In this document: one piece after another, positions 1 to 4,330 of the stretch
Layout: the number at the start of each line of letters is the position of its first letter
Numbering within the stretch: the first letter of the stretch is position 1
IMG/VR virus record: IMGVR_UViG_2663763282_000003
Span: 1 to 4,330 of that record
Direction: 5' to 3' (one strand)
Source of the DNA: a virus
Lineage: Duplodnaviria > Heunggongvirae > Uroviricota > Caudoviricetes
DNA: 4,330 bases
Notes under the pieces: model-generated
What the model was told of the DNA's origin: nothing
What the model saw: the letters and a program-made list of their open reading frames with translations, nothing else
The model's database searches: none
Position numbers and translations under genes: made by a program

Positions 1-185
1 GAATATCTGCGGCAGCGGGCTTGTAATGGGTTAAGTGATAACAGATGTCTGGAAATATAGGGGCAAATCCAGATTGGATTTGCAACCTCAGGAAACAGCC
101 AACAGCAGCAAAGTAGCAATCATCAAAATCATCCTGAATACGACGATTCAATTCCCTTCTAAAGTAGCAACATAAGGATTCCATT

Positions 186-479
186 ATGCCAGCGCCTCTG
201 TATGGTGCGGATGCCCCGCGCCGCTGTTCCGGCAATTCCGTATCGGAGGTGCTGGATAAATTCAGAAAAAACTACGATCGGATAATGTCGCTACCGCAGG
301 AAACGAAAGAGGAAAAGGAATTTCGCCACTGTATATGGCTTGCAGAGAAAGAAGAACGCGAGCGAATTTACCAGACATCAATCCGACCATTCCGCAAAGC
401 CACATATACCCACTTCCCTGAAATTGACCCGCGCCTGCGTAATTACCGCTCACGCTATGGCGCTATCAGTAATGACTGA
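186..479 (+). CDS. hypothetical phage early-region protein (97 aa), function unknown
   Basis: ATG at 186 preceded by AAGGA at 174-178 (7-nt spacer); open frame to TGA 477-479; co-directional with the downstream operon. No family recognised from the translation. Confidence 0.55.
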
Positions 480-489
480 GGAATTTACC

Positions 490-654
490 ATGAGAGGACT
501 TGCATACAACCCCGGCATTCTTCCGGCAGAAATGATTATTCGCCAACGCGTAAAGCCAATGCCATCGAGAGAGGAATTGCTTAAGAGAAATTCTTTTCCA
601 TCAGTGAATCAAAACAAGTATCTGAATGCGATGTTGCGGAGTGGGAAGAAATGA
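490..654 (+). CDS. small hypothetical protein (54 aa, basic), possibly translationally coupled
   Basis: ATG at 490 with GAGG at 478-481 (8-nt spacer); stop TGA 652-654 overlaps the ATG at 651 of the next gene (ATGA). It is the distal part of the 340..654 frame in the ORF track; the upstream part of that frame overlaps the better-supported 186-479 gene. Confidence 0.3.
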
Positions 655-1133
655 AACAAATGACACTAATTGAGATGGATGGTTTTCTGAAAGGTAAATG
701 CATCCCACGAGATTTAAAGGTTAACGAAACAAACGCTGAATATCTTGTGCGTAAGTTCGGTGAACTTGAATCAAAACTAGAAACGGCGTTGCGGGAGTGT
801 CGTTCTGCTGGAATCACGATTGATAACCTTGAGGCTAAATGCGCGAAGATGGCTGCTGAAAATACCTCACTTAAGCAATCTGAGAAGGAATTTAATGACT
901 TTTGTCGTGAGGAGTTTAGCGAATGGGAAGATGATGTTACTGAAACTCCAGCCACCGATGCTTTCCTGGCTGAAGTACGGGCGCAGGGGGTAGAGATGTA
1001 CGCAGATAACCTCGACAACGGAGCAGACGACGCAGAACGAGGTGGTTTTGATTATGCCGTTAAGTTTCTACGCAGTGAAGCATCTAGTGTACGTTTGTTC
1101 GCCGACCAGCTTCGCAAAGGAGGCAACCAGTGA
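651..1133 (+). CDS. hypothetical acidic coiled-coil protein (160 aa)
   Basis: ATG at 651 with GGAG at 638-641; stop TGA 1131-1133 overlaps the GTG start of the next gene (GTGA). Translation has a heptad-like central segment ([43 protein letters not shown]) and an acidic C-terminal half; hand count about 33 D/E versus 22 K/R. Confidence 0.6.
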
Positions 1134-2026
1134 GCAAGATTGACTATCAGGCACTGCGTGAGGCGGCAGAAAAAGCAACGTGTGGTGAGTGGTCGCTCGA
1201 ATATGGAGAGGGCCAATTTGATGGTGATGATGCGCTAATTCATCGTGACGTTGTTGGATATCTTCCCATTTGCAGAATTGAAGGAGCGCATCCTGAAAGC
1301 GGTTTCGATGAAGATTTCCAAATAGAACAGCAGGCCAATGCTGAATTCATCGCCGCAGCCAATCCAGCTACCGTCTTGGCGCTGCTGGATGAGCTGGAAA
1401 GAAACCAGCAATACATCAAACGCCGTGACCAGGAGAACGAGGAGATTGCGTTAACGGTAGGGAAGCTGCGTGTTGAGCTGGAAGGCAAAGACAAGCTGAT
1501 TGCAGAGCTTGGAAAACAATGCGCCGAATGGGAGCGAAAAGCATTAAGCAACTTTGAAGAGTGTGCTGCGATGGCTGAACGTATCGAAGAGTTGCAGACA
1601 AAATCTGCACCAGATTCGTTTGGCATCATCGGTGAAAATATTCGAACACAGGATAATCGAATAACGTCAGACCCTATGTTTTGTGTGTATCAAAAGCGCG
1701 AAATCGTTGTTGATGCTGATTATGACTATGACCGGATTGTCTGGGTTGATGAAGATGGCAATGAAGCCAATAAACGCCAAAGTCGTCGTCTCGAACTACT
1801 TCACGAAAACTTTCGAGAGCCACCAGAAAAATGGCGGCGCGTTGCTGTGAAAGATATTGATGAATTCGTTACCTGCTGTTTCACCGAACAGGGTTGTAAA
1901 GACTACCTGGCAGCCAATGGTCACAATCTTCGCTTGCCATTTATATATGTAAATGGCGGTTTCAGGAACGCTGAATATATCGGCATAAGAAACTGGCTTG
2001 CTGGCATTCGCATCAAAGGAGAGTGA
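1130..2026 (+). CDS. Ead/Ea22-like family protein (298 aa): conserved N-terminal module, central coiled coil, long C-terminal domain of unknown function
   Basis: GTG at 1130 preceded by a strong AGGAGG at 1118-1123 (6-nt spacer). N-terminus [21 protein letters not shown] resembles the conserved N-terminal signature of lambdoid Ead/Ea22 proteins as recalled from memory. Central region (about aa 85-150) is coiled-coil-like. Position upstream of an Ea8.5-like gene, xis and int mirrors the lambda ea22-ea8.5-xis-int order. Confidence 0.75.
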   Translation: MSKIDYQALREAAEKATCGEWSLEYGEGQFDGDDALIHRDVVGYLPICRIEGAHPESGFDEDFQIEQQANAEFIAAANPATVLALLDELERNQQYIKRRDQENEEIALTVGKLRVELEGKDKLIAELGKQCAEWERKALSNFEECAAMAERIEELQTKSAPDSFGIIGENIRTQDNRITSDPMFCVYQKREIVVDADYDYDRIVWVDEDGNEANKRQSRRLELLHENFREPPEKWRRVAVKDIDEFVTCCFTEQGCKDYLAANGHNLRLPFIYVNGGFRNAEYIGIRNWLAGIRIKGE

Positions 2027-2228
2027 GATGAGCAGGAATACGGGTTTGTAAAAGATAACGCTTGTGAAAATGCTGAATTTCGCGTCGTCTTCACAGCGAT
2101 GCCAGAGTCTGTAGTGTCAGATGATGACCGTACTCAAACATCGGGTTGAGTATTATCTTACTGTTTCTTTACATAAACATTGCTGATACCGTTTAGCTGA
2201 AACGACATACATTGCAAGGAGTTTATAA

Positions 2229-2510
2229 ATGAGTATCAATGAGTTAGAGTCTGAGCAAAAAGATTGGGCGTTATCAATGTTGTGCAGATCCGGTGTCTTG
2301 TCTCCATGCAGACATCACGAAGGTGTTTATGTAGATGAAGGTATAGATATAGAGTCGGCATACAAATATTCCATGAAGGTTTATAAGTCTAATGAAGACA
2401 AATCCCCATTCTGCAATGTGCGAGAAATGACTGATACCGTGCAAAATTATTATCATGAGTACGGTGGAAACGATACTTGCCCTCTCTGTACAAAACATAT
2501 AGATGATTAA
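2229..2510 (+). CDS. Ea8.5-like small cysteine/histidine-rich (putative zinc-binding) protein, 93 aa
   Basis: ATG at 2229 with AAGGAG at 2216-2221 (7-nt spacer); stop TAA 2508-2510 followed by a hairpin plus T-tract. Translation carries Cys at 19, 27, 62, 85, 88 (C-terminal CPLC) and His at 29, 30, 76, 90. Same length (93 aa) and same position relative to Ea22 and xis as lambda Ea8.5, as recalled. Visibly lower GC than flanking genes (about 38% versus 53% in 60-nt samples counted by hand). Confidence 0.6.
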   Translation: MSINELESEQKDWALSMLCRSGVLSPCRHHEGVYVDEGIDIESAYKYSMKVYKSNEDKSPFCNVREMTDTVQNYYHEYGGNDTCPLCTKHIDD

Positions 2511-2527
2511 ACCAAATATTACATAAC

Positions 2528-2557
2528 AATCCTCGCATTCGCGGGGATTTCTTTTAT
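2528..2557 (+). terminator. intrinsic (rho-independent) terminator-like hairpin after the Ea8.5-like gene
   Basis: 5' arm AATCCTCGC (2528-2536), loop ATTC (2537-2540), 3' arm GCGGGGATT (2541-2549): 9 bp with one G-U pair, followed by TCTTTTAT (2550-2557). Confidence 0.6.
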
Positions 2558-2598
2558 CTGAACTCGCTACGGAGGGTTTTGTTTTATGGAGATGATAA

Positions 2599-2766
2599 AT
2601 GCACTTCCGAGTTACAGGTGAATGGAATGGAGAACCATTCAACAGAGTTATCGAAGCCGAGAACATCAGCGACTGCTATGACCACTGGATGCTGTGGGCG
2701 CAGATAGCACATGCAGACGTAACCAATATTCGAATTGAAGAACTGAAAGAACACCAAGCCGCCTGA
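2599..2766 (+). CDS. small hypothetical protein (55 aa)
   Basis: ATG at 2599 with GGAG at 2588-2591 (7-nt spacer); open frame MHFRVTGEWNGEPFNRVIEAENISDCYDHWMLWAQIAHADVTNIRIEELKEHQAA to TGA 2764-2766. Below the length cutoff of the supplied ORF track. Stop codon lies in the loop of the next terminator hairpin. Confidence 0.4.
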   Translation: MHFRVTGEWNGEPFNRVIEAENISDCYDHWMLWAQIAHADVTNIRIEELKEHQAA

Positions 2767-2780
2767 TGGCGGTTTTTTAT
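2756..2780 (+). terminator. intrinsic terminator-like hairpin
   Basis: Stem CCGCC (2759-2763) / GGCGG (2768-2772), loop TGAT (2764-2767), extendable by flanking A-U and G-U pairs, followed by six T (2773-2778). Confidence 0.6.
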
Positions 2781-2792
2781 TGGAGACAAGAA

Positions 2793-3137
2793 ATGTCAGA
2801 TTTGGCTATGAAGGTTTTGAAATGGCAATCGACTGGCGATGTCGGCATCAGTAGCGCAACTCTTGCCTCAATCGCATGTGGACTGAAAAAGAATATCTAT
2901 GGTCATCACTTCGGCGCTCCACATGACGCAGCCGATTTCAGACGATGCGTTGCACTTGTTGAGCAGATCCCAGAAATCAGAGATTCATTCGACAAGGTTG
3001 CAAAGCGCGTTCCGGCATTCAAAGGCATCCTCAACGAATGGGATTCCCTCGTTGATCTGTTGAAGTCTGAAATGAAGATACACGGAAACAAAGCACCAGA
3101 GACTTACAGAAGAATTAGCGAGTTACGCAAGGACTAA
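2793..3137 (+). CDS. hypothetical protein (114 aa), function unknown, immediately upstream of xis
   Basis: ATG at 2793 with GGAGA at 2782-2786 (7-nt spacer). The in-frame ATG at 2766 used by the ORF track lies inside the upstream terminator hairpin and has no Shine-Dalgarno. Stop TAA 3135-3137. No family recognised. Confidence 0.6.
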   Translation: MSDLAMKVLKWQSTGDVGISSATLASIACGLKKNIYGHHFGAPHDAADFRRCVALVEQIPEIRDSFDKVAKRVPAFKGILNEWDSLVDLLKSEMKIHGNKAPETYRRISELRKD

Positions 3138-3142
3138 CCACA

Positions 3143-3161
3143 GCCTCATACTCGATGAGGC
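3143..3161 (+). terminator. possible weak terminator or RNA hairpin
   Basis: 7-bp stem GCCTCAT (3143-3149) / ATGAGGC (3155-3161), loop ACTCG; the downstream T-tract is poor (CTGTTCATT), so termination efficiency is doubtful. Confidence 0.3.
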
Positions 3162-3227
3162 CTGTTCATTGCTCAATGATATCCAGACCTACCGCAATAA
3201 TACCAATCCAATAAATGGAGATTCCAG

Positions 3228-3575
3228 GTGGAAGAAGAAATCTTCACTCGTGAAGAGGCAGCGTCGTATCTGAAGGTAGACAAAGGCACTATCACGCAGT
3301 GGATACGAAGTGGACGACTTCAGGCCGCAAAGATAAATCCAGATAAACCTAAAAGCCCATATCGCATTTGCAAGTCAGACTGCATTGCGGCGCTTAAGTC
3401 TGTGAGACACAATAGCGCGGTGAATGCGGTTGATGTGCAGGAGGTTAAAGCATGTCAATCAAACTACGCGGTGGCACGTGGCACTGCGATTTCGTCGCGC
3501 CAGATGGATCAAGAGTTAGACGCTCTCTTGAAACATCGGACAAAAGGCAAGCGCAAGAACTTCACGATCGTCTGA
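3228..3575 (+). CDS. xis: excisionase (Xis; P22-type excisionase/DNA-binding protein), 115 aa
   Basis: GTG at 3228 with GGAG at 3217-3220 (7-nt spacer). Small basic protein with an N-terminal HTH-like segment (FTREEAASYLKVDKGTITQWIRSGRLQAA). Sits directly upstream of and overlapping the integrase gene, as in P22-type int-xis modules. Confidence 0.75.
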   Translation: MEEEIFTREEAASYLKVDKGTITQWIRSGRLQAAKINPDKPKSPYRICKSDCIAALKSVRHNSAVNAVDVQEVKACQSNYAVARGTAISSRQMDQELDALLKHRTKGKRKNFTIV

Positions 3576-4330
3576 AAGCAGAAGCGTGGAGAGTAAAAAA
3601 TCTCGGGGAATCACCGAAAAAGCTATTCAAGGAAGCCTGCATACGGTGGCTGCGTGAGAAATCGGATAAGAAGTCCATTGATGATGACAAGAGCATTATA
3701 TCGTTCTGGATGTTGCACTTCAGAGAAGCCATTCTCTCTGACATAACAACAGAAAAAATAATGGAGGCGGTAGACGGGATGGAAAACCGCCGCCATCGCC
3801 TGAACTGGGAGATGAGCCGGGACAGGTGTTTGCGACTTGGCAATCCGGTGCCGGAGTATAAACCAAAGCTTGCAAGCAAAGGAACGAAGACGAGGCATCT
3901 GGCAATACTTCGCGCCATTCTCAATATGGCTGTTGAATGGGGATGGCTTGACAGGGCACCCAAAATATCAACACCACGCGTTAAGAATGGACGCATCAGA
4001 TGGCTTACAGAGGAGGAATCGAAGCGCCTGTTTGCAGAAATTGCTCCTCACTTCTTCCCTGTGGTCATGTTTGCAATCACGACAGGCCTTCGCCGTTCCA
4101 ACGTTACAGACCTTGAGTGGTCACAGGTCGATCTGGATAAGAAAATGGCATGGATGCACCCTGATGAAACAAAAGCTGGCAATGCGATCGGAGTTCCTCT
4201 TAACGAAACCGCATGCCAGATATTAAGAAAACAGCAGGGGCTCCATAAGAGATGGGTATTTGTCCACACCAAACCTGCCTACCGAAGCGACGGAACAAAA
4301 ACAGCAGCGGTAAGGAAGATGAGAACCGAC
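3452..4330 (+). CDS. int: phage tyrosine integrase (site-specific recombinase, P22-type), 3'-partial: N-terminal 293 codons in window
   Basis: ATG at 3452 preceded by AGGAGG at 3439-3444 (7-nt spacer). Frame stays open to the last base of the window (879 nt, no stop). Translation MSIKLRGGTWHCDFVAPDGSRVRRSLETSDKRQAQELHDRLKAEAWRV... has an arm-binding-type N-terminus and the box I motif region TTGLRRSN containing the first catalytic Arg. Downstream catalytic residues would lie beyond the window. Confidence 0.9.
   Translation, partial: MSIKLRGGTWHCDFVAPDGSRVRRSLETSDKRQAQELHDRLKAEAWRVKNLGESPKKLFKEACIRWLREKSDKKSIDDDKSIISFWMLHFREAILSDITTEKIMEAVDGMENRRHRLNWEMSRDRCLRLGNPVPEYKPKLASKGTKTRHLAILRAILNMAVEWGWLDRAPKISTPRVKNGRIRWLTEEESKRLFAEIAPHFFPVVMFAITTGLRRSNVTDLEWSQVDLDKKMAWMHPDETKAGNAIGVPLNETACQILRKQQGLHKRWVFVHTKPAYRSDGTKTAAVRKMRTD

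Follow-up and report, generated by a model that had tools for sequence, protein, structure and literature searches.

The open reading frame (ORF) at positions 2229..2510 of the + strand is almost certainly phage lambda gene ea8.5, and its product is the same protein as lambda's. It lies within a stretch of 4,330 nucleotides, called the window below. The gene is thus an already known one, carried here by a lambdoid backbone other than lambda, and its protein sequence adds nothing new. What is new is the picture of the Ea8.5 family as small, stand-alone, acidic and AT-rich compared with its flanks, together with the observation that the same protein accompanies an unrelated Int and a divergent CII. 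These features bear on the role of ea8.5, one of the oldest unassigned genes of phage lambda.

Identification of ea8.5

The ORF begins with ATG, comprises 93 codons and encodes 93 amino acids, exactly as described in a first-pass annotation made from the sequence alone, and is preceded by a ribosome-binding site.

2229..2510, + strand: ea8.5 coding sequence (lambda identity; PF20735, 164 bits; phrog_6325; AF2 model)
2216..2221, + strand: Shine-Dalgarno sequence AAGGAG, by direct reading, 7 nt before the ATG

All residues of the product (93/93) are the same as in lambda Ea8.5 (NP_040611, translated from lambda 29374-29655); at the DNA level, identity is 99.6%, the sole base change being a synonymous one at 2456. 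The protein matches Pfam family PF20735 (Lambda_ea8_5) over profile positions 1-90 of 90 with 164.3 bits (E=1.1e-48; curated cut-off, 27 bits), phrog_6325 over positions 1-93 of 93 (E=8e-54), and the solved homologue 2M7A at E=2.5e-18. The label Ea8.5-like, proposed initially, therefore understated the relationship. On the opposite strand, the overlapping ORFs 2274..2666 and 2236..2361 gave no match in PHROGs, and the 130-aa minus-strand ORF overlapping ea8.5 gave none in NCBIfam.

It is extremely improbable that this ORF is a chance reading frame or a non-functional remnant. Lambda does dispense with ea8.5 in the laboratory, but the gene has a strong ribosome-binding site, is 95-100% conserved in 241 E. 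coli genomes, and belongs to a family that extends down to 27% identity across Proteobacteria with invariant Cys ligands; moreover, folded homologues have been solved, and transcription and translation of the lambda gene have been reported. The conservation effectively refutes a non-functional ORF.

The GC content of ea8.5 is 0.383, compared with 0.468 for the Ea22-like ORF, 0.476 for orf55, 0.460 for the whole window and 0.471 for the window minus the gene. An AT-rich block extends over 2027-2598 (GC 0.390), and 5% of all 282-bp windows reach a GC as low as that of ea8.5. The dip is genuine but modest: the first-pass estimate of 38% for the gene was accurate, whereas the neighbours are at 46-48% rather than 53%.

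Prophage context and the ea8.5-orf55 cassette

The window is the leftward early (pL-type) operon of a mosaic lambdoid prophage, with all genes on the + strand.

186-479, + strand: abc2, anti-RecBCD, full-length, P22/HK022-type (PF11043, E=6e-63)
490-654, + strand: DUF2737-like ORF, 54 aa
651-1133, + strand: orf160
1130-2026, + strand: Ead/Ea22-like protein, 298 aa (Ead_Ea22 domain at residues 2-147; phrog_3205)
2000..2782, + strand: ea8.5-orf55 mosaic cassette, 783 bp (blastn against lambda and the E. coli 1008S13 prophage, L002)
2599..2766, + strand: orf55 (lambdap35 homologue), 55 aa (phrog_676, E=5.5e-40; lambda annotation NP_597778)
2793-3137, + strand: orf114 (HK022p30-like; phrog_1229)
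3228-3575, + strand: HTH_17 excisionase-like ORF, 115 aa
3452-4330, + strand: tyrosine integrase

Positions 71-4330 are 100% identical to a prophage in CP012140.1 (L013 6942-11201), which sits at tRNA-Thr(CGT), i.e. thrW, beside proA-proB in a chromosome of the E. coli/Shigella type. Bases 1-70 are unmatched in that prophage, and many phage matches likewise begin at 71 or 186. This difference places a mosaic junction at 70/71, upstream of abc2, and means that the window must derive from a sibling prophage whose recombination module is not the same.

Several details of the operon can be added. The DUF2737-like ORF, orf160 and the Ea22-like gene are joined by overlapping ATGA and GTGA stop-start junctions, which suggest translational coupling. 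A hairpin at 3143-3161, after orf114, has no T-run. The excisionase-like ORF runs ~120 nt past the integrase start codon (3452) in a different frame, and its HTH domain covers residues 6-51 only; either the actual Xis may be shorter or the xis/int overlap may be genuine, and it also appears in the RefSeq annotations of mEp213 and HK75.

As in lambda, ea8.5 lies downstream of ea22 in the leftward early operon, and the Ea8.5 protein, the ribosome-binding site, hairpins t3 and t5 and the orf55 partner are the same. In contrast, the Ea22-like gene encodes 298 aa rather than the 182 aa of lambda, orf114 is present between orf55 and xis and is absent from lambda, and xis/int are of the SfX/mEp213 type with thrW as target. 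The position between an Ea22-like gene and xis given in the first-pass annotation is correct as to order, although both orf55 (2599-2766) and orf114 (2793-3137) intervene before xis.

The region shared with lambda is sharply delimited. The cassette, which spans the last 27 nt of ea22, the leader, ea8.5, orf55 and the terminator-like hairpin after orf55, is 96.7% identical to lambda and 98.9% identical to L002, an unrelated E. coli prophage located at sbcB (both by blastn), and the end points 2000 and 2782 are identical in the two matches. Outside these limits, lambda matches only short ea22-derived patches (1129-1178 and 1382-1483). The two short patches and the last 27 nt are all that the Ea22-like gene has in common with lambda ea22, and the C-terminal part of its product differs from lambda's (phrog_3205); such patchy sharing indicates that ea22 is itself mosaic, its conserved 3' end being the left recombination boundary of the cassette. 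orf55 is a constant companion of ea8.5, following it in L002 and in the CP012140.1 prophage as well.

Comparison with related phages points in the same direction. Both mEp213 and mEp043 match the window from 2523 on (t3 hairpin, orf55, orf114, xis and int) and lack ea8.5, carrying DUF4752 and other small genes where it would be, while HK75 lacks the entire ea8.5-orf55 block; the slot between the ea22-like gene and xis is thus hypervariable among related phages. The fixed ends and these three phages show ea8.5-orf55 to be a mosaic cassette that is portable and occupies a hypervariable slot for accessory genes. The proposal of separate acquisition, made earlier from base composition, is therefore supported in part, by the mosaic cassette with its fixed ends and by the AT-richness over flanks described below.

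In phage mEp234, the match to the window (2453-2592) begins within the last ~57 nt of ea8.5. A remnant of the 3' end thus seems to be retained in this phage, suggesting that ea8.5 was replaced or deleted there by recombination inside the coding sequence.

Predicted zinc site, predicted fold and charge

The Ea8.5 product contains Cys at positions 19, 27, 62, 84 and 87 and His at positions 29, 30, 76 and 90. We aligned 50 full-length family members, obtained from an exhaustive HMMER scan of 1.84 billion representatives, and found C27, C84 and C87 to be invariant and H30 to be 98% conserved; a separate set of 22 sequences gave the same conservation of metal ligands. Positions A14, A44-Y45-K46 and R65-E66-M67-T68-D69 are also well conserved. 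C19, H29, C62, H76 and H90 are not conserved in the family, and these non-ligand residues of lambda Ea8.5 are missing from both homologues of solved structure, EC0111_1119 from EPEC O111:H- (PDB 2M7A, ~41% identical to Ea8.5) and PP_3909 from Pseudomonas putida KT2440 (PDB 2M7B, ~28% identical). From the ligand conservation and the published account of the homologue structures, we infer that Ea8.5 binds zinc, the predicted ligand set C27-x2-H30 … C84-x2-C87 joining the N-terminal hairpin to the C-terminal helix. The earlier suggestion of zinc coordination is supported by this conservation pattern, but its list of residues needs correction: C27 and H30 hold, C84 and C87 had been numbered one too high (as C85 and C88), H76 had been missed, and C19, H29, C62 and H90 are not conserved, so that half of the listed residues fall out.

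An AF2 model of the ea8.5 product (pLDDT 85.4, pTM 0.71) had 2m7a and 2m7b as its only significant PDB matches. In the structural search of PDB and BFVD, the other matches were Ea8.5 homologues and uncharacterised proteins only, with no characterised inhibitor among them. The model predicts a helical protein whose termini would be stapled together by the zinc site, with the fold seen in 2M7A and 2M7B, i.e. homeodomain-like with a zinc knuckle. Kwan 2013, as cited in PMC8614690, describes the two solved structures as hybrids of homeodomain and zinc finger, and the "fused homeodomain/zinc-finger" given in the first-pass annotation agrees with the title of that paper as it is quoted there. No homeodomain or HTH profile was recognised in a Pfam search, in which PF20735 was the sole match; the Ea8.5 fold is known to escape sequence-based detection (PMC3824215).

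Ea8.5 is strongly acidic, with a pI of 4.81 and a net charge of -8, and so is its family (median pI 4.70 and median net charge -8 for the 50 members, 46 of which have a pI <6). These electrostatics are unlike those of a net-basic DNA-binding homeodomain. Net charge is a crude proxy; with that in mind, the uniform acidity points to protein binding rather than to a DNA-binding homeodomain. It thus weighs on the view that Ea8.5 is a sequence-specific DNA-binding transcription factor that directly represses phage or host promoters, its homeodomain-like helices reading DNA and its zinc knuckle stabilising or extending the contact. The structural-genomics authors and later reviews lean toward a transcription-factor role (PMC8614690 and PMC4195576), and several basic residues are kept in the family (K46, R64/R65, K72 and K89), which as a local patch could still contact nucleic acid. 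Nevertheless, the searchable literature holds no report of sequence-specific DNA binding by Ea8.5, and we regard a transcription factor as quite unlikely.

Distribution and genomic context of the family

The Ea8.5 family is small, with 73 representatives at E <=1e-3 among 1.84 billion. Its members are essentially always stand-alone proteins of 87-115 aa. Longer members (P0035, P0054, P0066 and P0082) were considered as domain fusions, but they carry PF20735 alone and look like mis-called starts; another candidate fusion, P0030, was a low-complexity artefact. In 7 out of 7 loci, the family gene is more AT-rich than its ±3 kb flanks, by 0.03 to 0.17, indicating that low GC characterises the family as a whole, as is typical of accessory genes that move horizontally.

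We detected the ea8.5 sequence in 241 out of 5,426 complete E. coli genomes, many of which represent laboratory lambda or DE3 lysogens. Some database records should be read with caution. A 48-kb record named "Campylobacter phage CJLB-4" (MW057783.1) is a 99% match to lambda over the queried region, the record of a Xanthomonas phage (OQ055246.1) is lambda-identical in part, and so are Ea8.5 fragments labelled Ancylomarina and Acinetobacter baumannii. These records look like contamination with lambda control DNA or vectors rather than true host range.

No conserved gene neighbourhood was found among distant Ea8.5 homologues. In a Chromobacterium prophage, a lone homologue lies between RusA and HNH/terminase genes, antisense to all its neighbours, and must therefore have its own promoter. 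A metagenomic phage carries its homologue after DnaB/DUF1376, and other homologues are found at island borders or in non-phage loci. In Burkholderia, the homologue lies between genes for an 885-aa AAA_13/AAA_21 ATPase and a 376-aa DUF3800 protein, within an integrase-bounded integrative island adjoining mutS (L004/L005 2912-7678). This neighbourhood, a single locus, looks defence-related.

One possibility is that Ea8.5 is an anti-defence or host-takeover factor, an acidic small protein, perhaps mimicking nucleic acid, that blocks a host nuclease, a restriction system or an abortive-infection sensor. Such a role had been put forward in the first-pass annotation, where it was pure speculation. 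Small size, acidity, early expression and dispensability in the laboratory make up the usual profile of an anti-defence gene, and ea8.5 lies a few genes downstream of the anti-RecBCD gene abc2. However, the association with presumed defence neighbours comes from one locus, the fold shows no structural similarity to known inhibitors in PDB or BFVD, and no paper in the searchable literature makes a connection between defence or anti-defence and either ea8.5 or the exo-xis region. Scans with NCBIfam and PADLOC were empty, but the PADLOC result carries no weight here, its models being those of defence proteins and not of anti-defence proteins. Overall, we consider an anti-defence function distinctly unlikely.

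Leader and hairpins flanking ea8.5

An untranslated leader precedes ea8.5 and three hairpins follow it.

2027..2228, + strand: AT-rich untranslated leader, 202 bp, GC 0.40
2528..2557, + strand: predicted intrinsic-terminator-like hairpin with T-run (t3; 9-bp stem at 2528-2549, dG -13.1 kcal/mol, z = -4.2)
2562..2585, + strand: second, weaker hairpin with T-run (predicted t4, by comparison with lambda)
2756..2782, + strand: terminator-like hairpin with T-run over the orf55 stop codon (predicted t5, dG -13.4)

The leader is identical to lambda from ~2045 to the ATG in the alignment and differs by 11 bp inserted within 2030-2040, close behind the stop codon of ea22. Over 2027-2228, we found no sigma-70 consensus promoter and no Rfam match, and RNA structure was not in excess (z = -0.1). 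The only promoter candidate seen by eye, a weak extended -10-like TGTGAAAAT at 2062-2070, was not considered evidence. All three hairpins were already listed as predicted terminators in lambda (t3, t4 and t5; PMC4195576 Table 4). Compared with lambda, the t4-like hairpin has lost one stem pair through a C-to-A change at 2573, and it was not picked up by a consensus terminator scan. The t5-like hairpin marks the right end of the cassette, since homology to both lambda and L002 stops at 2782.

These signals are relevant to another possible explanation, that ea8.5 is a moron-like, autonomously expressed accessory gene with its main role in the lysogen rather than in lytic development, e.g. a change in host physiology, an effect on cell-division or replication timing, or the exclusion of other phages. 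Consistent with this are the AT-richness of the family genes over their flanks, the strong predicted terminator-like hairpins after ea8.5, the lone antisense Chromobacterium homologue and the hypervariability of the slot. In addition, ribosome profiling reportedly detected translation of ea8.5 in uninduced lambda lysogens (Liu 2013, as cited in PMC4195576), host MinE was a two-hybrid match, and an effect on cell-cycle synchrony has been reported for the exo-xis region (PMC8614690). On the other hand, the 202-bp leader lacks a sigma-70 consensus promoter, the gene is co-oriented within the pL operon in lambda as well as here, and no lysogen phenotype has been reported. We therefore judge a moron-like role in the lysogen to be rather unlikely.

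Possible function of Ea8.5

Papers on Ea8.5 assign it no function, as had been presumed in the first-pass annotation, and the available observations come from diverse assays. In yeast two-hybrid screens, its partners were Ea8.5 itself, Int (in two vector systems), Q, Ren, Stf, Tfa and host MinE (PMC3224144, PMC8614690), but the two-hybrid study itself flags the Ea8.5 bait as promiscuous and less reliable (PMC3224144). Multicopy ea8.5 is described as strongly repressing the CII-dependent promoter paQ, slightly repressing pI and leaving pE unaffected (Los 2008, as summarised in PMC7093339 and PMC3824215), and, in the account given in PMC7093339, overexpressed ea8.5 acts on the promoters less strongly than the entire exo-xis region does. 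Phage development after H2O2 induction was delayed with a plasmid-borne ea8.5 frameshift (PMC4195576), and the gene is non-essential by CRISPRi (PMC10695390).

The operon-mates of ea8.5 offer a point of comparison. Orf73 (a TraR/DksA-like RNA polymerase binder), Orf63, Orf60a, Orf61 and Ea22 are likewise early, small and non-essential, and their overexpression, like that of Ea8.5, influences the lysis-lysogeny balance. Ea8.5 has no sequence or fold relationship to any of them. Nevertheless, Orf73 provides a precedent, as a small zinc-containing exo-xis protein that binds host RNA polymerase and not DNA, as outlined in PMC9239242.

The comparison of phage backbones narrows the choice of partners. 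The same Ea8.5 accompanies an integrase that is 22% identical to lambda's (over a partial alignment) and a CII that is 35% identical, making it unlikely that the protein functions by specific contact with lambda Int or CII, and a conserved host target more plausible.

Based on these considerations, our best guess, for which support is weak and which we would put at somewhat less than an even chance, is that Ea8.5 is a small protein-binding modulator rather than a DNA-binding transcription factor, and that it damps CII-dependent promoters through a host partner. Early synthesis of Ea8.5 would depend on the N-antiterminated leftward transcript, in which the hairpins flanking ea8.5 have to be read through; a low level might also be made in lysogens. 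The protein would then bind a partner that is basic and probably interacts with nucleic acid, and that is conserved in hosts and not specific to one phage. Such binding would indirectly damp the CII-dependent promoters, paQ more than pI, and the reduced CII-dependent output would nudge the lysis-lysogeny decision toward lysis. Several points speak against a protein-binding modulator: the promoter effects come from multicopy overexpression, the two-hybrid partners carry the reliability warning mentioned above, the local basic patch might yet engage nucleic acid, and published opinion leans to a transcription factor. The moron-like and anti-defence explanations overlap in part with the modulator proposal.

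Implications for the Ea8.5 family

A broader interpretation, possible but doubtful, is that the family is an autonomously mobile, AT-rich, moron-like cassette. Its product, an acidic mini-protein stapled by zinc, would bind and neutralise a nucleic-acid-binding protein that is conserved in bacteria, and would do so both in infected cells and in lysogens. Candidate targets would be defence sensors or nucleases, nucleoid or division factors, and factors associated with RNA polymerase. If true, this interpretation would account for an identical Ea8.5 working alongside unrelated Int and CII modules, and for the presence of distant homologues in non-lambdoid elements across Proteobacteria.

In summary, the value of this copy of ea8.5 is modest and comparative: an identical protein occurs in three phage backbones with unrelated integrases and divergent CII. 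Together with the acidic, stand-alone and AT-rich character of the family, this shifts the weight among the hypotheses toward a host protein that is conserved as the target, and makes DNA binding or phage-specific partners less attractive. Any function found for Ea8.5 would hold directly for this prophage as well as for ~4% of complete E. coli genomes.
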